DNA of 64,000 nucleotides from a virus (taxonomy: Duplodnaviria; Caudoviricetes). How positions within the stretch are numbered: position 1 is the stretch's first letter; each line of letters begins with the position of its first letter. The translations under genes and the position numbers were made by a program. The notes beneath the pieces were generated by a model. The model was given only the letters and a program-made list of their open reading frames with translations. It had not been told where the DNA came from and made no database searches. Below, one piece after another: positions 3,638 through 42,700 of the stretch. Where the stretch lies: positions 139,295 to 203,294 of IMG/VR virus record IMGVR_UViG_3300033388_005412; one strand, given 5' to 3'.

Positions 3638-3786
3638 GCACATGGTGGGTTGTGTGGGTTGTTGGTGGAGAAATAAGAAGTGGAATCATGGACTCATGTG
3701 AGATCATGCCAGTAAATGATGTTATCTCAAAACAAAGAGGTGATCTGGATGCTTTTGGTGACTTTTATAGTTATTGAATTAAACCA

Positions 3787-3848
3787 AAACTGAAGATATA
3801 CAAGTTTAGCTACATTGTGCGGTATTTAAAGTATATCATTAAAAGGAG
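3787..3848 (+). promoter_or_regulatory. conserved promoter/operator-like element, copy 1
   Basis: AAAACTGAAGATATACAAGTTT...TTTAAAGTATATCA then AGGAGG; GATATAC/GTATATC inverted repeat with 29-nt spacer. Confidence 0.65.
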
Positions 3849-4112: not shown

Positions 4113-4175
4113 AAAACTGAAGATATACAAGTTTTATCATAATGCATGGTTTTTAAAGTATATCACAACAGGAGG
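4113..4175 (+). promoter_or_regulatory. conserved promoter/operator-like element, copy 2
   Basis: Same two blocks and identical 29-nt spacing as copy 1, followed by AGGAGG. Confidence 0.65.
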
Positions 4176-4455: not shown

Positions 4456-4550
4456 CAACACATAGTCCTGAGCATGACTTATAAACTGCTCAAAAGGAGG
4501 TCTATGAAAACAAAACCTGGAACGTTGATTTTGAAGAAAGGAGAAATAAA

Positions 4551-4778
4551 ATGAAAGATGTTTTAAAAACAATTGGTAGTATGTATGCACTAGTTGGGAT
4601 TTTGTACTGGCCGATTATTCTGATGAGTCTCATCGGTTGGTCTATTGGCTGGGCTAATGAAGGGTTCAAATGGTTCATATGGAACTTTTCGCCGCCATAT
4701 GTTATTAACATCGTTGTGTTAGTAGCTATTGGAACAACCTTTAATATGCTTGTGTGGCTGAAGAAACTTTATAACTAA
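4551..4778 (+). CDS. small membrane protein
   Basis: AGGAG; two hydrophobic segments. Confidence 0.65.
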   Translation: MKDVLKTIGSMYALVGILYWPIILMSLIGWSIGWANEGFKWFIWNFSPPYVINIVVLVAIGTTFNMLVWLKKLYN

Positions 4779-6016: not shown

Positions 6017-6349
6017 ATGAAAAAGAAAAAAGCTAAAATTGGTGATATTATCAAAGCATCAAGGGATCTCAAAACTCTTTCACCTGAAAAAAGATTAAGC
6101 AAACTTCGAAAACTTATAGATGAAATACCATCATCTAAAACACCACATAAGAGTAAGATAAATCATGTCATTCCACGGTGCAATAGTCCGCTATTTGCCA
6201 AACCAGAGTGGATAAGAGATAATTGTATATATTCACCTAAATATGGGTACATAATCAAACCAAATTGGATGAGAGATAATTGTCTATGCTCGCTCAAATC
6301 ATTAATGGAAGCTGCAACAAGTGGATTGAATATTGAGATTAAAGACTAA
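6017..6349 (+). CDS. microprotein homologous to an internal (beta-like barrel) segment of the ~650-aa RNAP paralogs
   Basis: LSPEKRLSKLRKLIDEI..KT..K.KI...AKPEWIRDN aligns with LPIEKRLNRIQKLIGEM..KT..K.KI...AKPSWMRLN of 8037; own AGGAGG. Confidence 0.75.
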   Translation: MKKKKAKIGDIIKASRDLKTLSPEKRLSKLRKLIDEIPSSKTPHKSKINHVIPRCNSPLFAKPEWIRDNCIYSPKYGYIIKPNWMRDNCLCSLKSLMEAATSGLNIEIKD

Positions 6350-6358
6350 GGAGGTAAA

Positions 6359-6604
6359 ATGCAAATAATAGCAAATCTGATAATTCCTGATTATATTTAT
6401 GAAAATGGAAAAATCATAAAATATAAAAAATTATCAGACAAACAAAAACAGAATGTGAGAAAACAATGTCAACACGTAAGTATACTAAAACAACAACGCA
6501 TGAAAAGGATGAAACAACATACTTCGATCGACATACAGAAACTTAATGGAGCATTCACTGCATCGGATCTTGAAAAAATAAGAAAAATAAAGGAGGTAAA
6601 ATGA
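6359..6604 (+). CDS. microprotein homologous to the N-terminus of the RNAP paralogs
   Basis: MQIIANLIIPDYIYENG...KQNVRKQCQHVSIL vs MKIISNLIIPEFICEDG...KQDVRKHCQHVSVL of 32833. Confidence 0.8.
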   Translation: MQIIANLIIPDYIYENGKIIKYKKLSDKQKQNVRKQCQHVSILKQQRMKRMKQHTSIDIQKLNGAFTASDLEKIRKIKEVK

Positions 6605-6831
6605 CTAAATTAGAAATAGAATTTATGAAAAACTCGTTAATTTTCATTAAGAAATATAGTGAGTCTGATAAATTCAAAATTAAAAATCATACGGACTGTG
6701 CTCATCATGTTGTGTTGTTACATAACAAAGATCTTAGTGCAGTAGATGGAATGAAAACATATAAAAAAGGAACAATGAAAGAAAAAGATATAAAAATGTT
6801 ATTTGGATATCACACAAAGGAGGTAAAATGA
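6601..6831 (+). CDS. microprotein with similarity to an internal RNAP segment
   Basis: DLS...YKKGTMKEKDIKMLFGY vs DLS...YEKGLITEEDVKALFGY of 8037. Confidence 0.6.
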   Translation: MTKLEIEFMKNSLIFIKKYSESDKFKIKNHTDCAHHVVLLHNKDLSAVDGMKTYKKGTMKEKDIKMLFGYHTKEVK

Positions 6832-7225: not shown

Positions 7226-7248
7226 GATAATGTATTACTACCTGGAAT

Positions 7249-7503
7249 GGCCGCCGCAAGGCGGCCTCAATAAATAATGAATACTCAAAATCACCAAAAT
7301 CAACAAAACAGTACTCAAATCAGTAATCAAATCAACAAAACAGTACTTAAAACAATAAATCAAATAATTAAATACAAATGTGATGAAATCACAAATCAAA
7401 TAGTATCAAACAATATCAAATAGTATCAACTATTATCTATTATATATAATAGGAAGAAACAAAGAGAAATGGTGTTAAATGAAGGCGGCCGCGGAAGCGG
7501 CCT
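7249..7503. repeat. G-poor repeat tract bracketed by two GC-rich GNRA hairpins
   Basis: GGCCGCC-GCAA-GGCGGCC and GGCCGC-GGAA-GCGGCC flank AATCAACAAAACAGTACT x2 and TCAAATAGTATCAA x2. Confidence 0.7.
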
Positions 7504-7550
7504 TGAACCGATTGTCATATAGTAAAATATGAACAGCCAAAGGAGACAGA

Positions 7551-7872: not shown

Positions 7873-8046
7873 ATGAAACATAAGATTGAATTAAGGACTA
7901 GAGATGGAACAGCTCGTGAACTTACTTTGATCATTAAACACAAATTAAATGATGGCAAGATTATAAAACTGTCTAAACATGCGGTTTTATTCAGGACTCT
8001 AACAGAGTCTTATGTTAAGGCAAGTAGGAGGAAAAAATGGAAATGA
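7873..8046 (+). CDS. small basic hypothetical protein
   Basis: AGAGGAG SD before MKHKIE; overlaps the RNAP start. Confidence 0.55.
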   Translation: MKHKIELRTRDGTARELTLIIKHKLNDGKIIKLSKHAVLFRTLTESYVKASRRKKWK

Positions 8047-10022
8047 AAATGAATGTCATTAGTGACCTGATTGTCGCTGAGTTCCTTTATAAAGGAATTG
8101 GCGAAAAGTTAAGGGAAACGGCGAAATTGAAAGGTGCTGAGAGAAAACATGTAATGGGTAGGAGCCATCACATAAGTTTTCTAAGAAACAGGCCGAATTT
8201 AAGAAGGATATTCGAAAATACCTTTACAATTATGAAGGACAACGGTAGTTATACCGATGATGAATATCTTGATGTTTGTAAGAGGGCCAGGGAATCCGGT
8301 TATGTGCCGCAATGGAATGTTAAACGTGCTCATGGAGGAGGCCAGGGCGCTCATGCATGCGGTAAAATAGAATTCGGTAAATCTCAGATCATAGAAGATA
8401 TCCTTAAAGAGGATAATATGCTGGAAGAATTTAGAAATCTTCCTATTGAGAAGAGATTAAATAGAATTCAGAAGCTTATAGGTGAGATGACAAGGTTTAA
8501 AACAGAACCTAAAGTTAAGATTGGGTTTGCCGCCAAAACATACAATGGTATTGTATGGGCAAAACCGAGCTGGATGAGGCTTAATGGTATCTCAATGGGC
8601 GCGAAGACCACAAATGTGTTAAAGTCTCTAATTATGCCTCTGGAGGCCTTGGAAGTGACTGATTATGACATGCTTGTGAGTCCGGAGGAAAATAAATTTA
8701 ACTTAAGTGAGGAAAAGCTTGGTTGTTTAATCAGGTGGGTTCCAAGATTATCACCTAAATCTTTGTTCAGCAGGAACTTAAGAAGGAAGTTTTCAGATAA
8801 GCTTGGAAGAAATCCCCAGATGAAATGGGATTTATTAAGCTTGGTTAATCATATTCCGGATGTTGACTTGTCACATGAGAGGGATATGTACGAGAAGGGG
8901 CTTATCACAGAAGAAGATGTAAAGGCTTTATTCGGTTATGAAAAGAATGGAGAAACAGTGATTCGCCCGGTAGGTAAGCGTATCCTGGCCGGGGAGTCTA
9001 TATTTCATCCGGATATATGGGTAGAGCTTGAAAAACCTTTTAAGAAAATGGTTTTGAATAAGCTGCAGCCGAGAATCAAGGGTATTTATGGAGTGGCTAT
9101 GCCGAAATCCATGTTAAAAATGATACCGAATGAGGCGATTTACTATAAAGCATGGGTTACGAGGTATCCCTGGGTTCTTCCTATTCTTACAAAGATAGGT
9201 GTATGGGAAGGTATGATATTTGTTGATGAAGAGTTATGGGAGATGTTTGGTGGTGATTTTGATGGTGATCAGGCAGCTGCATTTGATTGGGATTCTTTGA
9301 CAACTGATCTCTATCTGGATAGGGATAAAGAGTGGCTGAAGAAGGCCATGAAGATGCCTGTTAAAGAGCCGGCTAACTTTGAAGGCAGAACAGAAGAAGA
9401 AGTTATAGCTAAGCAGCTTAGTCAGTATTCAGGCTGTGGAACTGTGTATAATAATGCTATGACTATAGTGGATGCTGCCAGGGCCGCGGAGTGGAAGTTT
9501 AATGATCTTGTAAAGCTGCAGGCTTATTTGTATGCTAACATAGTTCAGCCTTTTATAGATGGGTTCAAATATAAAGGCGCCAACCATGTACCAAGTCTGT
9601 ATGACATGGTTACAAGAGTTGATGATAAGTTTGATTATCTTTCTATGAAGGAAACAATGAGACTTCGTGATTTTTATAGAGCAATAAGAAGCCGCGGTAG
9701 TTTTATGGATTTAACTGATGTGGCTAAACTCGCCAACGCTGATTCTAAAAGCTTTTATGAAAGAGTTGTCTCTATCTTCAAGGGGTGGAAAAGAGGTGAT
9801 TATATCCCGGTTCCCGCGCTTGATGAGACCATCGCGAAAACAGTGAAAACCAGTTTTGTGAAGTATGGCCGTAATGTTGAGGCGAGATATGATAGCTTTA
9901 ACTATTTGATAACAAGTACTGAAGTACTGAAGGAGGTAATAAGAAATTGTTATGAGAGAAAGGATTACAGTTTGGCTGAGTATTTAGTTGTGAAATTGAA
10001 TGTTGTTGCAGAGGAGGTGTAA
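8037..10022 (+). CDS. putative single-subunit two-barrel RNA polymerase (paralog 1)
   Basis: GAKTTNVLKSLIMP...DMLVSP (beta GDK...KG...DIVLNP-like), QPRIKGIYGV, VTRYP, IFVDEELWEMFGGDFDGDQAAAF (beta' NADFDGD-like), IDGFKYKG. Confidence 0.8.
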   Translation: MEMKMNVISDLIVAEFLYKGIGEKLRETAKLKGAERKHVMGRSHHISFLRNRPNLRRIFENTFTIMKDNGSYTDDEYLDVCKRARESGYVPQWNVKRAHGGGQGAHACGKIEFGKSQIIEDILKEDNMLEEFRNLPIEKRLNRIQKLIGEMTRFKTEPKVKIGFAAKTYNGIVWAKPSWMRLNGISMGAKTTNVLKSLIMPLEALEVTDYDMLVSPEENKFNLSEEKLGCLIRWVPRLSPKSLFSRNLRRKFSDKLGRNPQMKWDLLSLVNHIPDVDLSHERDMYEKGLITEEDVKALFGYEKNGETVIRPVGKRILAGESIFHPDIWVELEKPFKKMVLNKLQPRIKGIYGVAMPKSMLKMIPNEAIYYKAWVTRYPWVLPILTKIGVWEGMIFVDEELWEMFGGDFDGDQAAAFDWDSLTTDLYLDRDKEWLKKAMKMPVKEPANFEGRTEEEVIAKQLSQYSGCGTVYNNAMTIVDAARAAEWKFNDLVKLQAYLYANIVQPFIDGFKYKGANHVPSLYDMVTRVDDKFDYLSMKETMRLRDFYRAIRSRGSFMDLTDVAKLANADSKSFYERVVSIFKGWKRGDYIPVPALDETIAKTVKTSFVKYGRNVEARYDSFNYLITSTEVLKEVIRNCYERKDYSLAEYLVVKLNVVAEEV

Positions 10023-11379: not shown

Positions 11380-11745
11380 TTTACTACTATATATATACTT
11401 AACTTATAATATATACTAGTAATTTATTATAATATGTTATTATAATAAAGAAACCTAACTAGAATATACATAACAATTATAATAAATCTTATTATAATAA
11501 AAAAGCTTATTAAAAATAGACACTATTATTATAATAAAATATCATAAGTCTATTAATGATATACTAGTATAATACAGTCTATTTAGGACTCATTTGACGA
11601 ATCTATCATCAGAGTCCAGTAGGGGCTACACTTGGACTCATATGATAGCCGCGAGGATACGTTACAGCTAAGAATATAACTGTGCAAATACTATTTAATA
11701 GTACTTTATAGTACTTAATAGTACTTAATAGTATTTGATTCAAAT
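11380..11745. other. very AT-rich non-coding tract with 10-bp tandem repeats (origin-like)
   Basis: ORF-free, nearly all A/T over 11380-11580; ATAGTACTT(T/A) repeated about 4 times at 11699-11738. Confidence 0.5.
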
Positions 11746-12523: not shown

Positions 12524-12655
12524 TCCATTAGTTTGTTGGTTTATTAGCCCATTAGTATTACACTTTAATGTACAGAAGAATGTAAAAGTCTTTGCACTTT
12601 GATGTACAGAGAAATGTAAAAAATGGTTTACATTTTAATGTACAGAAGAATGTAA
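12517..12655. repeat. two 16-bp and three 25-bp direct repeats upstream of a promoter
   Basis: TTATTAG(T/C)CCATTAGT at 12517 and 12541; CA(C/T)TTT(A/G)ATGTACAGA..AATGTAA at 12561, 12595 and 12631. Confidence 0.8.
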
Positions 12656-12697
12656 TTTCTCGACGGTAAAAATAGTAAATATGTTTGTTCCGGTGTG

Positions 12698-12806
12698 TAT
12701 AATGAAACCAGAGAACAATACAACAATTATCAATATTAATGTTAAATATCAGCGGTAATGATAATCATTAACAATGACATCGATATTGATATTGTTGTAA
12801 AGGAGG
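12698..12806 (+). promoter_or_regulatory. -10 box plus long leader hairpin abutting the SD
   Basis: TATAAT at 12698; TACAACAAT-T-ATCAATAT pairs with ATATTGAT-ATTGTTGTA (12719-12799); AAGGAGG follows. Confidence 0.55.
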
Positions 12807-12823
12807 AAAAATGGGAGGAATAA

Positions 12824-26824: not shown

Positions 26825-27424
26825 ATGAAAAAAGGAACATGGATTACAAAAGATGGCATTGTCAAGAAAATAAAGAATATGACATTAAAACATTTAGAAA
26901 ATGTTGAAAAAATGTTAAGCAAAAAAATTTCTTATATGGAAGACAATAAAATTCCGATGATTTCTGACTTTTCGCCGGGTTTATATTATCCTAATTTTAT
27001 GAATGTTTTTATTAAAAGAAATGAGATTATAGAGGAAATATGTAAACGTGAATTACATGATATTGGTGAATTAGAAATGATTGAGACATAGGAGGAGAAA
27101 AATGATTTTTATTCAAAAACTGATTTTTGAGTTGTTATTAAGTTATCCAACATGGTTGATGGTGATTGATATTATATTTACATCAGCTATTGTTATAGCT
27201 GCTGGTTACATTATATTTGCAATAGTGAGGTATAAAAAATGAAATTTAAAGTTCAATGGGAAGAACAGAGGTCTATCATAATCGAGGCCGATACCGCGGA
27301 TGCCGCTGAAGAAATGATGATGAATGGCGAATTTGATGGTAAAGACGTCGAATCCGGAGAGTTAACGTCGATGCCTGAAGCGTATGAATTGAAGGATGAA
27401 GAAAAATTTAGGAGGAAAGAATGA
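26825..27424 (+). other. small hypothetical genes (26825-27091, 27239-27424)
   Basis: Co-directional ORFs in the operon; 27239 overlaps the spoVG-3 start. Confidence 0.55.
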
Positions 27425-27987: not shown

Positions 27988-28043
27988 TATAATGGAATCG
28001 GCTTGATTTCGGTTTCCGTATATCAAGTTACATCATTCTGTTA

Positions 28044-28123
28044 TGCGAACGGTGGTGGCGTGGTAGCCTGACATCGTTGAGCTTTCCAAGCTCGGATGTC
28101 GCAGACCAACTGCCCACCTCGCA
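28044..28123 (+). ncRNA. cloverleaf ncRNA E with elongated arm ending in a tRNA-Gly(UCC)-type anticodon stem-loop
   Basis: TGCGA..GGTGG/CCACCTCGCA, U, GGC-GTGGTA-GCC, U, GACATC/GATGTC + TGAGC-TTTCCAA-GCTCG, GCAG-ACCAA-CTGC. Confidence 0.75.
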
Positions 28124-28167
28124 CTGTGAAATAGAATTTGGAGGAAAAAAATTGAAAAGGAGGAAAA

Positions 28168-29090: not shown

Positions 29091-29299
29091 ATTAAAAAAA
29101 AAGGGGGATGCGATCAAGATTAATCCGATTGAAATTGTTACAACATTAATAATTGAAGGAATAATACTGGGAATAGTTGTCAGTGTATCGAAACCGATAA
29201 CTAAATTAATTGAATCAATTTACACTAGAAAAAAGAAAAAATTATCTGATGATAACGTAGCGGCATGCGCCGTTGTAATAGACAATTAAGGAGAATACA

Positions 29300-30137: not shown

Positions 30138-30143
30138 AAACAT

Positions 30144-30216
30144 AGGGATGTCGTTCAATTGGACAGGACCGGTGATTTTGAGTCACCTAATCGAGGTTCG
30201 AATCCTTGCATCCCTG
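30144..30216 (+). tRNA. trnQ: tRNA-Gln (anticodon UUG), no encoded CCA
   Basis: AGGGATG/CATCCCT acceptor, GTTC/GGAC D-stem, GGTGA-TTTTGAG-TCACC, CGAGG-TTCGAAT-CCTTG. Confidence 0.95.
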
Positions 30217-30404
30217 TTTATATCTGATGATGCAAAAGGAGATAAATCATGAATGAAACATATTGTCCAAAATGTAAGAATTCATTGAAAAGTGTTGGAT
30301 TTACCTGTGCGGGACAGAGTCTATATCACTGTCCTATCTGTGAGCGCTGGTGGGAAATAAAAGAACTTCCTAATGAAGATGAATCAACAAAATAAGGAGG
30401 ACGA

Positions 30405-32293: not shown

Positions 32294-32820
32294 ATGGGTG
32301 AATACGCTGATGAATTAATTTTTAATGGATTTAGTGATATGGGAGCATCAGATTATTGCGAACAAATACCGTTTGTTATTAACCCATTTTATCGCAAACC
32401 AAGAAAAGCCAAATATGAATATAAAAAAATAGTCAGACAAACTGATAAGGCCTGGCTTATCGAATTTTCTGGTGGTGCCAAAAAATGGTTACCAAAAAGT
32501 AAATGTGATATAGATAAAAAATTTATTTATATTCCAGAATGGCTCGAAAGAAGAATAATTATGATAGAATTACGTAATGAATTACGACGTGGATATATTT
32601 GAAAAATAAATAAGGAGGTGGAATGTCTAAAACATTAAACTGGATAAGGAAGAAAATTCATTGTCCTTATTGCTGGGACATAATAAATATTAATATTGAT
32701 ATTTGCCAGGAACCTTTGGCATATAATGAAAAAATAACAGGAGGTGAACGCACATGTCCGAATTGTAAAAGAATAATAACTGATCAGAACCTAAAGCATT
32801 GTCATTTTATCGAAGAATAA
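32294..32820 (+). other. two hypothetical genes (32294-32602, 32623-32820 with CxxC pairs)
   Basis: 32294 contains TDKAWLI..WLPKSK..IPEWL; 32623 has GGAGG SD. Confidence 0.6.
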
Positions 32821-32832
32821 TAGGGAGAGCGC

Positions 32833-34779
32833 ATGAAAATAATATCAAATTTAATAATTCCTGAATTCATATGTGAAGACGGTATATTGACAAGTTATGA
32901 GAAATTACATCCGAAAATAAAACAGGATGTGAGAAAACACTGTCAGCATGTAAGTGTACTGACTTACAGACCGTATATGCGCCGAATTTTAGATAATTCA
33001 TTTACTGTAATGAAATTCGGAGGATCATTTATCGGCGATGAATATTTAGAATTAGTAAAGAAAGCTAAAACTAAAGGATACATAGCACAATGGAATGTCA
33101 AGAGAACACATGGCGGCGGCCGAGGTGCTAAATCGTGGGGCAAAATAGAATTTGCCAGAACACAGATTATAGAAGATATCGTTAAAGAACTGGGTTTTCA
33201 TGAAGAATTCATGAGATTACCGATGGGTAAAAGAATGAACCGCATACAGAAAATAATAGGCGAAATGCACGATTTTCAGATAAAGCCCAGAGTTAAAATA
33301 GTTGGCGATATGGACAAATTCGAGGGATTGCTTTTCGGACGCATAAAATGGATGAGGAAAAATGGAATTGAGCCGGGTGCTAAAACAACTTTAGCAACTA
33401 AGGGGCTTATATTCCCGACGCCAAAACATATTAAATGTGATGCTGACTTACTTGTTCCTGCAGGCGAGAATAAATTCGGCTTAAATGAGGAAAAGTTATC
33501 CGAATTAATAAAATGGATACCAAGATTAACGCCGGGATCACTATTCAGTAGAAATCTTAGACGGAAAAATTCAGATATCCTAGGACGAAATCCGCAGGCA
33601 AAATGGGACCTTCAGGCATTTCTTGATTTTATACCTGAAACTGATTTAACGGAACATAAAGCTGTGTTTGAAGGTAAATTAATGAATGATAAAATTGTCG
33701 ATACATTATTCGGATATAAACAAAAAGGTGAAAAGAAATTAAGATTTCATGGTATGCGGTTGAAGGCCAAAGAATCATTATTTCATCCTGAAGTATGGAA
33801 TGAGGCAGTTAAAACATTAGAAAAATGGATTAGCAAATCAATGCAGCCTGAAGTAAAAGGGCTTTATGGTGTTGTTATGCCGATAAGTCTGTTGAAAATT
33901 ATAAATGAAGAGAGCCATGAATTTGAGGCGTATGTTACAAGGTTTCCATGGGTTACGCCGATAAGAACAAAAATAGCATTATGGAAAGATATAATATTTG
34001 TTCCGGATGATTTATGGAAAGCATTCGGCGGAGATTATGATGGTGACCAAGGGGCCGCGTTTTATAAACATACTATGAATACAGGATTATTATGGAAACG
34101 TGACAAAGAATGGCTTAAGCGTATAATGACACTTCCTGAGAAAGAAGATGATGCTTCAAATAAAAGTGAAGATGAAGTTATCGCGATACAACTTGATCAG
34201 TACGCATATTGCGGACGTATTTATAATAGTGGAAAGATTGTTGTTGACGCGGCGAGAATGGAAGGTTGGGGCCAAAGAGAAATCCAGGAACTGGACATGA
34301 AAATAGCAGCAACTGATGTTCAGCCGTATATAGACGGCTTTAAATATAAAGCCGGTGTAAAACCCTTGAGTGTTTATGAACTTGCTGATAAATATTGTGT
34401 GTCAAAAAAATGTGTTGGCAAAGTGAAAACATATTTTAACGCATTAAGAGGCAGCAAAAGCGGAATAGAACTTGTGGTTGCTCTCTCGAAATTCGCACAT
34501 CCGGAAAGTAAAAGTTTCTATGAAAGAATTGTCAGCAAATTTAAAGAATTCCGTAAAGGTGATTATAAGGAAGTTAACAAAATTCCTATTGATATGGAAA
34601 AGGCGATTAAATATAGTTATGTTAAACACAGAGATGACTTGGACTCAAGATATTTAAGTTTTGAAAAATATTTAAAAACCAATGAACTTATTAACGGCGC
34701 TATAAGAAATTGTTTTGACAGGCGGGATGTCAGAATGGCAAGATTTATACACGAAAAGAAAGAACTTGAAAAATCATAA
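32833..34779 (+). CDS. putative single-subunit two-barrel RNA polymerase (paralog 2)
   Basis: KFEGLLFG, GAKTTLATKGLIFP..ADLLVP, QPEVKGLYGV, VTRFP, IFVPDDLWKAFGGDYDGDQGAAF, YIDGFKYK; colinear with 8037-10022. Confidence 0.8.
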   Translation: MKIISNLIIPEFICEDGILTSYEKLHPKIKQDVRKHCQHVSVLTYRPYMRRILDNSFTVMKFGGSFIGDEYLELVKKAKTKGYIAQWNVKRTHGGGRGAKSWGKIEFARTQIIEDIVKELGFHEEFMRLPMGKRMNRIQKIIGEMHDFQIKPRVKIVGDMDKFEGLLFGRIKWMRKNGIEPGAKTTLATKGLIFPTPKHIKCDADLLVPAGENKFGLNEEKLSELIKWIPRLTPGSLFSRNLRRKNSDILGRNPQAKWDLQAFLDFIPETDLTEHKAVFEGKLMNDKIVDTLFGYKQKGEKKLRFHGMRLKAKESLFHPEVWNEAVKTLEKWISKSMQPEVKGLYGVVMPISLLKIINEESHEFEAYVTRFPWVTPIRTKIALWKDIIFVPDDLWKAFGGDYDGDQGAAFYKHTMNTGLLWKRDKEWLKRIMTLPEKEDDASNKSEDEVIAIQLDQYAYCGRIYNSGKIVVDAARMEGWGQREIQELDMKIAATDVQPYIDGFKYKAGVKPLSVYELADKYCVSKKCVGKVKTYFNALRGSKSGIELVVALSKFAHPESKSFYERIVSKFKEFRKGDYKEVNKIPIDMEKAIKYSYVKHRDDLDSRYLSFEKYLKTNELINGAIRNCFDRRDVRMARFIHEKKELEKS

Positions 34780-35111: not shown

Positions 35112-35162
35112 TATTGCAATAATATGCATTATTTTGCAATAAGGATTTTGTTATTGCAATAA
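35111..35162. repeat. three near-palindromic 12-mers at exact 20-bp spacing
   Basis: ATATTGCAATAA, ATTTTGCAATAA, TTATTGCAATAA at 35111, 35131 and 35151. Confidence 0.75.
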
Positions 35163-35220
35163 CATGCAACAAGATTCAAATTGACGGTATAACATTTTTA
35201 TTATAATATATAAATAGAAC

Positions 35221-35341
35221 ATTCCCGGTGGGGTGAGACCCTGATGGATGCAGCTCCTGAAATTATGGAGAATACTCAACACCTTAGGATTGTAAAGGTT
35301 ATAAGTGTGGGTTGAAATCGCAAAGTCATTTGCTCGGGAAT
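35221..35341 (+). ncRNA. cloverleaf ncRNA F
   Basis: ATTCCCGG/TCGGGAAT, U, GGG-GTGAGA-CCC, CTCC-TGAAATTAT-GGAG, GCAAA-GTCA-TTTGC; TTGACG and TATAAT-like boxes upstream. Confidence 0.7.
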
Positions 35342-35553: not shown

Positions 35554-36240
35554 ATGGATATGAGAACTGTAATAACAATGGGTGAAATGCTTAAGGCCGG
35601 AAAGAATAAAGAAATGTGTGATATTATTCTTAAACGGATTGAGCCTTTTATGGTATTTATATCAGGAAAGATTTACCATTTTTACGGTGCAAAATATGAC
35701 AGCAGCATATCATTCGACGATATAAAACAATTTGTAACGGTTTCTATGATCATGGCTATTAGAAAATATAATCCTAAAAACTACGATAAGAAGAAAGATA
35801 AATCAGGTAGTAAAAAATATATGAACGGATTCAGTTACATAGAGACGATTGGAAAAAGAATTGTAAGATCATATTATGAATATCAACATAGAAAAAAAAG
35901 AATACCGCCTGAAAAAATAACGAGTCTGAATATAATTATTGATGATTATGGTAATGAACTACAGTCAATATTATGTGAACCCGAAAACGATGATATAGAT
36001 GTTTTTAATATCAAAAAAATAGTAAATAAATTTCATGGTTCATATGTCGATAGCGCTGACGAGAGAATGCATTTGTATGATGTAATGAAAATGATAATGA
36101 TCGATGACATGACATATGGTGAAGTTGGAAAAGTTTATAATATATCTAAACAGGCGATGCATAAAATAGTAAAGAATCATATTGTTAAGGAGCTGAAACG
36201 TGAAAACAAACAACGAACTGCAGAAAATCCTTATATGTAA
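35554..36240 (+). CDS. phage sigma70-like factor
   Basis: Region 2-like FDDIKQ...AIRKYNP...FSYI; SLN linker; region 4 HTH MTYGEVGKVYNISKQAMHKI. Confidence 0.78.
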   Translation: MDMRTVITMGEMLKAGKNKEMCDIILKRIEPFMVFISGKIYHFYGAKYDSSISFDDIKQFVTVSMIMAIRKYNPKNYDKKKDKSGSKKYMNGFSYIETIGKRIVRSYYEYQHRKKRIPPEKITSLNIIIDDYGNELQSILCEPENDDIDVFNIKKIVNKFHGSYVDSADERMHLYDVMKMIMIDDMTYGEVGKVYNISKQAMHKIVKNHIVKELKRENKQRTAENPYM

Positions 36241-39753: not shown

Positions 39754-42700
39754 ATGGATATAATAATATATGTTTTAGGTGTGGTGTTTTTAATGTTTTT
39801 AGTGTTGATGTTGTGTATATTTTTGCTTTCTTGGTTTATTGAATTTTGTGAATTTTTACAAAGAATATCACAGGTAAAAAAAAGAAAAACGAATGTCCGC
39901 AAAGTTAGCATTGGCGTTGAAAGAATTATTAGAAGTTTGTTACACGGCTGATATGCATGAGGAATTACCAGAATGTATTGATGGTAGTTATTTAGACCAG
40001 GCAAAGAATACACTTACAGAATATGAGGAGAGTAAACAATGAATTATTATTTTCTAGGAAAGGGGTATGGAGAAGAACCGATGCTTGTTAAAATACCGAA
40101 AGCTGATAATCGTGAAGATGCGAATAAAATAATTGAAAAGGACACGGCAAGACGCGGTTATAACAGCACATTCTGGGACAAATGGGGTGTTATATTATCA
40201 ATGACTGAAATGAAATCAATAAAACGTAAAATCGGCGATTTCATTAACGACGCTGGTGATAAAAAATGAGCCATGTAAGTCGTAAACCATACATCACAAC
40301 GTCGAAAATATTTATGGAAACAGGAATGGAAACAGGAATGGAAACAGGAATGGAAACAGGAATGGTACGGTGTTTTAAAACACATCAACTCCCAGGCGGA
40401 AATCACAAGATAATTGTTAAGAACAAGAATCATGCGGTTATAATAAGTGATGGCCGGCCCTTGGAGAAAATTGATGGTAAATGGGTTTACACTGAATATA
40501 TTCAGAAGGGGATGAAAAATGGGAAAATTTGAAATCGGTGAAACTGTTATCATGCATGGATATGGTAATAGTAGAAAACTTGTCAAGATTGATTCAATTA
40601 CAAAAGCAGGAAATATTAAAATAAATGACGAAGTCTTTAGACCTGATGGTCATTTACGTGGTGGGGGTGTTTGGTCATCATCATATATTGACAAAACAAA
40701 TCCGGAAGAAATAAAGGAAATAAAAGATGAAATTTATAAAGAAAATTTAATTTATTTTCTTAGAAATTTTGATTTGAATACTTTATCAAATACTAAGTTA
40801 ACAGAAATATACAAAATAATGAAAGGAGCGAAGAAATGAAAATTTTATCAGAAAAAGAATACACAAGATTTGTGAAAGCAGATGAAATGGAGAGCCGGGT
40901 TTATATGGCTAACAGATGGCTGGCTGAATTTGACGATACATTGGCACCCATGTGGGATTATATAATAAAAGGCGATATTGACATCGACAAAATGAGAGAA
41001 AAACTTAGGAAGAAGTATGAAAAAATATAGGGTGATTGATTTACAGGGTTGCAATTTTATGGACGATACTTATGATGAACCCATGACTATAGCCGCTTTG
41101 AGGTCCAGATTCTGGGATCTCGATGACTGTCGAAGCAATACATATAATCAATTTACAAAAGATTATATATGTGACATGTGGATGGTTGAATTTGAGGAGA
41201 TTTAATGAAATATCAATTTTGCAAATGTAATAATTGTGGAGAGGTCTTTATTGATATAAATCCTGACACACAACCATCTTTTGAGATACCACGCGGTAAA
41301 ATTTTTAGAGAATTAACACAGCAGGAAGATGATGGCGGTTATTTCAGTGGCTGTCCAACATGTAAAACTGACGGATATTTAAGAGATGTGATAGATATGA
41401 AAGATGTTTTTCTGGGAGGTAAAAATGAGTAGAGTAAAAATTAAGTCACTGGAACATTTAAAAGAGATTTTAATAAATAGCGATAAGGATAGTGATGAAG
41501 ATTTTGTTTTGTTTTTAAATAGTGGTTTAAGATCATCTAAATATATTGGCTATGATGATGGTATATTCTGCATCACAAACTGTATTGATGATTCCGAGCA
41601 GGAATTAAATGATAAAGAAATTATGGATGATGAATATACAAACATAGGTAAAGGCATTAAACTCGGCGCATTTTACTGGGAGCCGGAGGAATAAATGGTT
41701 AAATATAAATCTGATAAGCGGATAGGACATGAATTCAGAAATATGAAAATAAACGAAATTAAATTTACAGGTAATCGTTCAGGATTCATAGATATTTACT
41801 TTCCGCACGGTGGTGAGTCAGTTGCTGGCGGGGCAAAAAACGTTTGTGATAATTTTATTATATATTATACAGGTGTAGTGGCATTTAGCTATTGGTATCC
41901 AAATGATATATACTGGCAATTATCTATGGCAGTTCGGAATAAAAGTGAGGATAGAAAATGAAAAATAGATTAACGTTAAAAAGTTTGAAAATTGAGATAG
42001 ATAATTTGATACATGATATCACAGATATAAAAGAACACCAAAGAAGCCACAAAAACAAAATAAATGAAATAATATCAAAAATGATAGATTGGGAAAACGC
42101 ATGTAAAGCGTTAGATCATCAAATGTATCAAATTGAGCTTGATATATTAAATAACCGGCATATAACAGAATGTTGTACCTGTCATTGCAAGGTAACAGAA
42201 ATGACAGCAAAACGTGAATGGAATAATGTGGTAATTGATCCTGATTGCAGAACATTTGACATAGTAGATAAATCATATAATGGTTATAAGTTGCTGGTGC
42301 CAATTTGCCCTGAGTGTGAGAAAGAAGGTGAAATAGCGATTTACAAAATGTTGTTCGAAAAGGATGATAAATAATGGATAAAGCCATATATAAGCAACCA
42401 TGCGAAAAAATGTATCATGTATTTACAAATGATAATGATAGCTGGGTGGAAAATTTGTCAGAGGCGGTGAAAATCGCCAGAATAATGAACCGGGATCATG
42501 GATGTGTAAGAATATATGAAGAAACTAATTGGGATGAAGAAGAAGGACTATTTATAGATGAAAATTGTATTTTAAGTTACGGTGGATTTCCGCGTTAGGA
42601 GGATAAATGCTCACATTTACAAGATTTAGTAAACAATGGTATTGGGAAAATCATAGGAAACATTTTAAAGACTTCAAAGACAATATTTTTGTTATAGATA

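Follow-up and report, generated by a model that had tools for sequence, protein, structure and literature searches.

The stretch of DNA analysed here (64,000 nucleotides; hereafter the window) is the final 64 kb of the 203,294-bp IMG/VR virus IMGVR_UViG_3300033388_005412, which is rated complete by CheckV. At positions 8037..10022 of its plus strand lies an open reading frame (ORF) of 661 aa (P0001), whose ATG is found six bases past an AGGAGG Shine-Dalgarno sequence. The encoded protein is predicted to be a compact single-chain RNA polymerase (RNAP) of the two-barrel type, and a second copy of the gene, paralog 2, is present in the same window. Among present-day proteins, single-chain two-barrel polymerases are the simplest kin of the machinery that transcribes cellular genomes, and the eukaryotic RNA-silencing polymerases are proposed to descend from them. 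The gene and its parts are listed below together with the evidence on which each assignment is based.

8037..10022, plus strand: compact single-chain two-barrel RNAP (predicted), paralog 1; ORF, Shine-Dalgarno sequence, AlphaFold2 model, fold matches, ratio of non-synonymous to synonymous substitution rates (dN/dS)
8484..8747, plus strand: first double-psi beta-barrel (DPBB; beta-like), residues ~150-237, holding G171, K190, K196 and D211; DPBB structural alignment, conservation
8604..8624, plus strand: lysine pair K190-x5-K196 (GAKTTNVLK); K190 in 42/42 and K196 in 39/42 sequences
9069..9287, plus strand: second DPBB (beta-prime-like), residues ~345-417, containing G349/Y351/G352 and R376-x-P378 as well as the metal loop; model strands, superpositions
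9255..9269, plus strand: putative catalytic DFDGD loop (D407, D409, D411); invariant in 49/49 and 42/42 sequences, paired by hhalign with GADYDGD of gp64
9393..9575, plus strand: two long helices (453-483, 488-509) with G468-x3-N472, D479-A-A-R482 and VQxxIDGFK511; model, conservation
9816..10019, plus strand: C-terminal helical domain of ~65 residues (594-661), which resembles generic helical bundles only

An earlier note, made from the letters of the DNA, had quoted a series of polymerase motifs, and all of them are found in the 661-aa ORF in the order claimed: TYNGIVW (residues 168-174), GAKTTNVLKSLI (188-199), DMLVSP (211-216), QPRIKGIYGV (343-352), VTRYP (374-378), GGDFDGD (405-411), GCGTVYN (466-472) and IDGFKYKG (507-514). 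Since these motifs coincide with conserved positions of the family alignment described below, they are best read, at the level of sequence, as the conserved skeleton of a protein family and not as random strings.

A rare sequence family with a two-barrel fold

Neither paralog is matched by Pfam (at E<=1), PHROGs, NCBIfam or PADLOC, a tblastn search of 50,697 GenBank phage records returned nothing, and phmmer together with two profile searches against all PDB sequences gave nothing meaningful. A word-indexed search of 5.8 billion proteins yielded eight relatives, none of them named, and no further ones when it was repeated with a 49-sequence profile. When 1.84 billion cluster representatives were searched exhaustively with an HMMER profile, 64 matches were obtained, 48 of which lie below 1e-30; most of the matching proteins are 570-730 aa long. 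The mini-polymerase family is real, rare and unannotated. The PF05183 model, which describes QDE-1 and the RDR proteins, matches neither paralog nor any other part of the genome at E<=1. PF00623 (Rpb1 domain) has no match in the genome either, although every control genome was matched, and in the 203-kb genome neither a T7-like nor a multisubunit RNAP domain could be detected. By sequence, the family falls into no named family; its link to PF05183, gp64 and YonO is one of fold.

Eight residues (G171, K190, G352, D407, D409, D411, G468 and K511) are invariant across alignments of 42 to 49 members, and K196, D211, K220, P378, P441, K443 and N472 are conserved in at least 93% of the family. The conserved basic residues of the beta-like barrel are the invariant K190 and K196 (93%), and the DxDxD metal loop of the beta-prime-like barrel, a hallmark of the two-barrel superfamily, is present in every aligned sequence. 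R376-x-P378 precedes this loop; both residues are invariant among the ten closest members, and P378 is conserved in 93% of the family. In other contigs, family members likewise sit in arrays of small ORFs. The sole match among 185,579 reference genomes (L016/L017) is located on the 28.1-kb contig PWMF01000220.1 of a metagenome-assembled genome labelled as a Natrialbaceae archaeon. The small ORFs of this contig include bacterial-type ClpB, SpoVG, Sigma70_r4, SLT and IS605 OrfB, and it is probably a mis-binned bacteriophage contig.

Structure prediction by AlphaFold from the single sequence was unusable, with a predicted local distance difference test score (pLDDT) of 35. The AlphaFold2 model used here was built from an alignment of ten homologs and has a pLDDT of 85.1 and a predicted template modelling score of 0.79. 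It contains both DPBBs, with the quoted motifs located on their strands and loops, and places the beta-like barrel before the beta-prime-like one, as had been claimed from the motifs. The strands of the second barrel span residues 349-356, 368-376, 383-390, 393-396 and 412-417, and the DFDGD loop is placed between the last of them. Residues 150-237 alone could be superimposed on natural and designed DPBB domains with Z-scores of 7.8-8.2 and a root-mean-square deviation (rmsd) of 2.6-2.8 over 81-85 residues. Two DPBB domains in one core, the second hallmark of the superfamily, are thus seen in the model and in whole-protein superpositions with Z-scores of 10-13.

All 24 of the 24 Foldseek matches in the PDB at E<=1e-3 are QDE-1, plant RDR2, P74-26 gp62 or P23-45 gp64, and bacterial beta-prime chains surface only at E>0.3. 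VIA-align gave Z-scores of 13.3 for maize RDR2 (456 aligned residues), 11.6 for P74-26 gp62 (421), 11.4 for P23-45 gp64 (472) and 10.8 for QDE-1; an independent all-against-all run reproduced this ranking and added gp66 from phi14:2, a crAss-like phage, with a Z-score of 7.6 over 520 residues. Among Swiss-Prot models, YonO is ranked first (E 1.7e-7), and the next thirteen places are taken by RDRs of plants and fungi. A shape search of the ESM Atlas led to bacterial and phage clusters labelled as RNA-dependent RNA polymerase (RdRP) with TM-scores of 0.61-0.65, and the neighbours obtained with a language model are phage clusters; in one of these, 57% of the members carry PF05183. Matches were hence obtained to YonO, QDE-1 and crAss gp66, enzymes with which a structural comparison had been proposed, and the claim of a single-chain two-barrel polymerase of the YonO/QDE-1/RdRP kind is borne out by the model and by the Foldseek, VIA-align and Swiss-Prot results. 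The assignment to the two-barrel RNAPs is as secure as prediction allows, and the 661-aa protein looks catalytically intact.

Two regions outside the barrels can be discussed in functional terms. The long helices 453-483 and 488-509 are a candidate bridge-helix or trigger-like element. Residues 246-261 (8775-8819), between the barrels, form a basic, strongly conserved loop in which S245, L248, R258 and P260 are kept in 88-93% of the members; this loop is the sole long stretch of the model with a pLDDT below 50 and is possibly a flexible element that contacts nucleic acid. The C-terminal domain 594-661 is missing from the shortest relatives, and members of 569-608 aa stop before it.

Relation to characterised two-barrel polymerases

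The closest characterised enzymes in terms of size are P23-45 gp64 (PDB 8F72) and P74-26 gp62 (8F5M) of Thermus phages, biochemically active non-virion RNAPs that have been crystallised and solved. Gp64 is a monomer that elongates an RNA primer in vitro, and it does not occur in virions (PMC10770324). Like them, the 661-aa protein is a single chain of roughly 600 aa with a two-barrel crab-claw fold (VIA-align Z 11.2-11.6, 421-472 residues aligned). Further shared features with gp64 are the location among early genes, the presence of a far larger tail-associated two-barrel RNAP candidate in the same phage, and the order of motifs after the metal loop: GxDxDGD, PxK, G-x3-N, DAA and Q-x2-[IV]D-x2-K. 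In an hhalign comparison of the family profile with gp64, the probability was 57% with the single gp64 sequence and 24% with a four-phage profile (E 1e-4 to 8e-4), and the alignment covers 125 of ~600 columns. It pairs GGDFDGD with GADYDGD and, further downstream, P441-x-K443, G468-x3-N472, D479-A-A and Q504-x2-[IV]D-x2-K511 with the corresponding gp64 motifs. Based on this motif-by-motif pairing, both families have the complete post-barrel motif series in common. Over the whole polymerase, however, no significant sequence or profile similarity to gp64 was found despite the common fold (Z 11.6); the likeness in sequence is marginal, and HMMER matches the 661-aa family to no PDB chain. The hosts of the two families also differ: among GenBank phages, the gp64 family is confined to Thermus siphoviruses, whereas the mini-polymerase is encoded, in two paralogs, by a low-GC jumbo myovirus with strong Shine-Dalgarno sequences.

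The earlier note had also considered the protein to be smaller than the known single-subunit two-barrel enzymes, a claim that does not hold. The gp64 chain has 593 residues in 8F72 (gene product 616 aa) and the gp62 chain 591 residues in 8F5M. Predicted relatives of 563 aa and 570 aa are found in BFVD and the AlphaFold Database. Members of the family itself whose genes are complete and lie within long contigs have 602 aa (L022) and 594-608 aa (P0017/L015), and several database representatives have 569-593 aa. Because all of these are shorter, 661 aa is an ordinary length for a single-chain two-barrel phage polymerase.

YonO of the Bacillus prophage SPbeta, a single-chain DNA-dependent RNAP (Forrest et al. 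2017, PMC5467207), is likewise a single-chain phage enzyme and is the best Swiss-Prot structure, with a TM-score of 0.46 by query over residues 64-655. In contrast to the 661-aa protein, it has 839 aa and a DNDGD metal loop, and the hhalign probability of 0.9% means that no sequence relation is detectable. The best superpositions are those with RDR2 (Z 13.3) and QDE-1 (Z 9.9-10.8), with 440-550 residues aligned; these enzymes share RxP followed by GGDxDGD and a downstream motif similar to [IV]D-x2-K-x-G. They differ by their size of 900-1400 aa, their added head and N-terminal domains and their RNA or single-stranded DNA (ssDNA) templates, and QDE-1 is dimeric. Gp66 of crAss-like phage phi14:2 (PDB 6VR4) belongs to the phage single-chain two-barrel clade as well (Z 7.6, 520 aligned, rmsd 4.7), but it is a virion-packaged protein of 2180 aa, and its size and setting are nearer to those of a 2103-aa ORF of the same genome (see below) than to those of the 661-aa protein. 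The RdRP-like clusters of the ESM Atlas, a 719-aa cyanobacterial cluster and a 936-aa phage PF05183 cluster, have the top TM-scores; these clusters and BFVD entry A0A8S5SEF1 (563 aa) are similar in length to the 661-aa protein and are known as predicted structures only. We conclude that the mini-polymerases are a separate family inside the phage two-barrel clade of Chaban et al. (PMC10770324). The sequence family is new, while the kind of phage enzyme is already known.

A second copy and the genomic setting

The paralog 2 mentioned in the earlier note exists; it is found ~25 kb downstream of paralog 1 and is colinear with it over the full length. Further features of the window that are related to the polymerase or to transcription are the following:

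32833..34779, plus strand: paralog 2 (P0002), 648 aa; 46% identical to paralog 1, all invariant residues, ortholog in L013, dN/dS 0.065
6017..6831, plus strand: three small ORFs preceded by Shine-Dalgarno sequences, partial and out-of-order polymerase copies (~119-185, 1-78, ~267-298); sequence comparison
35554..36240, plus strand: sigma-70/extracytoplasmic function (ECF)-like protein, 228 aa; TIGR02937 E 5e-7 (below cut-off), weak Sigma70_r4 match

A sister phage from metagenome 3300033145 possesses orthologs of both paralogs, with amino acid identities of 92% (L031, paralog 1) and 90% (L013, paralog 2). The dN/dS values against these orthologs are 0.08 and 0.065, respectively, at dS of 0.68-0.82, so that strong purifying selection acts on both paralogs. 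The family tree joins P0001 with P0004 and P0005, and P0002 with L013, as two sister groups whose pairing is weakly supported. An unrelated 48-kb phage fragment (G001, 24% complete) carries two deeply divergent family members, and two copies per genome therefore recur. Of the three small ORFs at 6017-6831, the middle one repeats the 5' end of paralog 2 at the DNA level with 72% identity (6342-6486 versus 32816-32960), including 17 nt upstream of the start; these ORFs may be remnants or expressed domain fragments.

The paralogs differ at residue 170, which is N in paralog 1 and E in paralog 2, and from this the earlier note had derived a possible difference in activity. The residue difference itself stands. 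The difference in activity is weakly supported, as column 170 is variable: among 42 sequences it holds E in 23, P in 6, D in 5, N in 2 and Q in 1, and an acidic residue is hence dispensable in the family. The idea that N170 disables paralog 1 was rejected on these grounds. In a wider form, the same idea would make the protein, and mainly paralog 1, a catalytically dead or repurposed fold such as a nucleic-acid-binding regulator, and N170 in place of the usual E/D as well as E485 in place of a G conserved in 83% of the members would fit it. In both paralogs, however, none of the eight invariant residues is lost, the DxDxD triad among them, both lysines are retained, six of the 42 members have P at position 170, and dN/dS is as low as 0.08, so that a dead fold is scarcely credible.

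The phage genome has a GC content of 34% and strong AGGAGG ribosome-binding sites, and it encodes a tail sheath, a portal, a DNA polymerase, a primase-helicase and a RecD/Dda-like helicase; given the tail sheath, the phage is a myovirus. Its host is probably a member of the Bacillota, with a low GC content and strong Shine-Dalgarno sites. From ~142.5 kb through the genome end to 28.6 kb extends a same-strand block of ~89 kb with ~230 mostly small genes, and in the part of it that falls within the window no other gene comes near the two polymerase genes in size. A 114-bp repeat (1-114 and 203181-203294 of the genome) was rejected as marking the true genome ends: its length of exactly 114 bp is that of an assembly overlap, and it fits such an overlap in a genome that is circular or circularly permuted better than true terminal repeats. 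Rfam and ARAGORN found a single tRNA in the window (tRNA-Gln, 30143-30217).

A second polymerase candidate is located outside the window. A 2103-aa ORF (P0070; 90671-96982 of the genome, minus strand) lies downstream of the tail sheath between giants of 2851 aa and 2288 aa. It contains RFPT...GGDSDGD at approximately residue 1673 and, about 650 residues upstream, a K-rich segment (~975-1030); the family profile aligns weakly, in the correct order, to the K-rich segment and the GGDSDGD region. Judged by these motifs, the protein is a plausible candidate for an injected two-barrel RNAP reminiscent of P23-45 gp96 and crAss gp66. No relatives of it were found in IMG/VR, and it is absent from the 48-kb fragment G001, which is 24% complete. 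The existence of this protein bears on the question of whether the 661-aa protein might itself be packaged into the virion and enter the cell together with the DNA as the polymerase of the first genes. Phage two-barrel RNAPs such as crAss gp66 and P23-45 gp96 are often virion components; however, the gene of the 661-aa protein is found among small early-type genes outside the structural module, a virion RNAP-like signature is already borne by the separate giant tail-module protein, and gp64, the analogue closest in size, is absent from virions. Packaging of the 661-aa protein is accordingly very unlikely.

The phage also has up to four Sigma70_r4-like ORFs. One is the sigma-ECF-like gene at 35554-36240 of the window, 0.8 kb downstream of paralog 2; the others are located at 4534-4608, 41372-41506 (minus strand) and 29121-29252 (minus strand) of the genome. 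Sigma_r4 proteins are found within ~8 kb of family members in the contigs L016 and L022 as well.

Proposed role in the phage transcription programme

The 661-aa protein is proposed to be a non-virion DNA-dependent RNAP that is made early and transcribes phage genes of the early or middle class, while a second class would fall to the paralog; we assign this reading a probability of roughly two in three. In the proposed mechanism, the first barrel would provide the lysines K190 and K196 and the second barrel the Mg-binding D407-x-D409-x-D411 loop behind R376-x-P378, followed by the two long helices and the invariant K511. The polymerase would be of monomer size and catalytically competent and, by analogy with all characterised phage enzymes of the clade (YonO, crAss gp66, P23-45 gp64 and gp96), insensitive to rifampicin. 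It would be an early product of the long block of small same-strand genes that houses its gene, and paralog 2 would serve a second promoter or time class. The programme would be started by the injected 2103-aa tail-module polymerase, and phage sigma-like proteins would redirect the host RNAP to other genes. A precedent exists in P23-45, which has one virion and one ~600-aa non-virion two-barrel RNAP, and two RNAPs are found in many viruses (PMC10770324). Template, promoters, timing and the division of labour are what we infer here, beyond the fold, the residue conservation, the purifying selection and the genomic setting established above.

Several observations weigh against this proposal. An expectation-maximization (EM) search of the upstream regions revealed no conserved promoter-like motif and scored barely above shuffled sequences; the log-likelihoods of 102 versus 90-96 on the plus strand and 74 versus 67-74 on the minus strand are not significant. 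Sigma-70-like sites are not enriched (46 found, 38 +/- 7 expected), and k-mer enrichment in the intergenic regions recovered Shine-Dalgarno sequences only. In a footprinting comparison with the sister phage, the 'intergenic' stretches are conserved at 83-92%, which equals or exceeds the conservation of the genes, and no obvious promoter block is apparent. The phage has up to four sigma-like ORFs, so that much of its transcription may be left to the RNAP of the host. In addition, the structurally nearest solved enzymes, RDR2 and QDE-1, copy RNA or ssDNA, and fusions with PIF1 and RNase H point to ssDNA or hybrid chemistry over promoter-driven transcription.

These fusions are found in three distant family members, P0060 (2501 aa, L026), P0062 (1810 aa, L025) and P0064 (1632 aa), in which GGDFDGD is intact and the complete polymerase module is fused to a PIF1-like helicase, RNase H, DUF1848 or a SLOG-like region. 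Their contigs are full of small phage-like ORFs, and the domain composition suggests a machine that may couple unwinding, RNA synthesis and hybrid processing. Together with RDR2 and QDE-1 as the best structural matches, they would fit the main alternative, a QDE-1-like polymerase which acts on ssDNA or RNA and makes RNA:DNA hybrids, replication primers, R-loops or double-stranded RNA instead of promoter-driven mRNAs. QDE-1 itself requires a helicase and RPA and prefers ssDNA (bioRxiv 10.1101/2020.03.07.982082), which favours the comparison. The two paralogs, however, stand alone, with neither a helicase nor an RNase H domain, a DnaG-like primase fused to a DnaB-like helicase is already encoded by the phage, and the characterised phage members of the clade are all DNA-dependent transcriptases (PMC10770324, PMC5467207). 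A QDE-1-like activity of the 661-aa protein is therefore regarded as unlikely, and early, promoter-driven transcription by a non-virion enzyme is preferred.

Candidate control sequences are present in the repeat-rich intergenic regions of the window (7226-7550, 11403-11743, 12524-12823, 35112-35250 and 3786-3838 / 4113-4165). A-rich CAACAAAACAGTACT and AATAGTATCAA repeats with flanking GC hairpins lie immediately upstream of the paralog 1 operon, and TTGCAATAA repeats follow paralog 2. Other intergenic regions hold arrays of TTATTATAATA and TAATAGTACTT and three 28-nt TTACAyTTTrATGTACAGAAGAATGTAA repeats, and the 53-nt repeat at 3786-3838 / 4113-4165 opens the plus-strand block. The repeats may be regulatory sites or promoters; none of them is significant as a common motif. 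Two further stretches left intergenic, 26908-27101 and 27988-28167, are 92% and 83% identical to sister phage L013, and the core of the latter is rich in GC, contains indels and resembles a structured RNA.

Taking the preferred role further, the phage could run a programme of three polymerases, all of the two-barrel type, with one giant injected enzyme and two compact non-virion paralogs. The core of ~570-600 aa would then be at the lower size limit of the fold, and the helicase fusions in other phages would suggest that the module ancestrally made RNA (R-loops or primers) on DNA that is unwound or single-stranded, in parallel with QDE-1 and its helicase. This extended scenario is speculative and somewhat doubtful as a whole.

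The finding overturns nothing, since phage enzymes of comparable size and fold have already been solved and characterised. A new conserved family does sharpen the definition of the minimal catalytic core, which amounts to ~570-600 residues with eight invariant positions. Pfam, PHROGs, NCBIfam and GenBank phage annotation all miss the family, and phages that carry it are consequently taken at present to lack a polymerase of their own. With two selected paralogs and a giant polymerase candidate in one genome, the phage provides a natural system for the divergence of promoter and template specificity after duplication.

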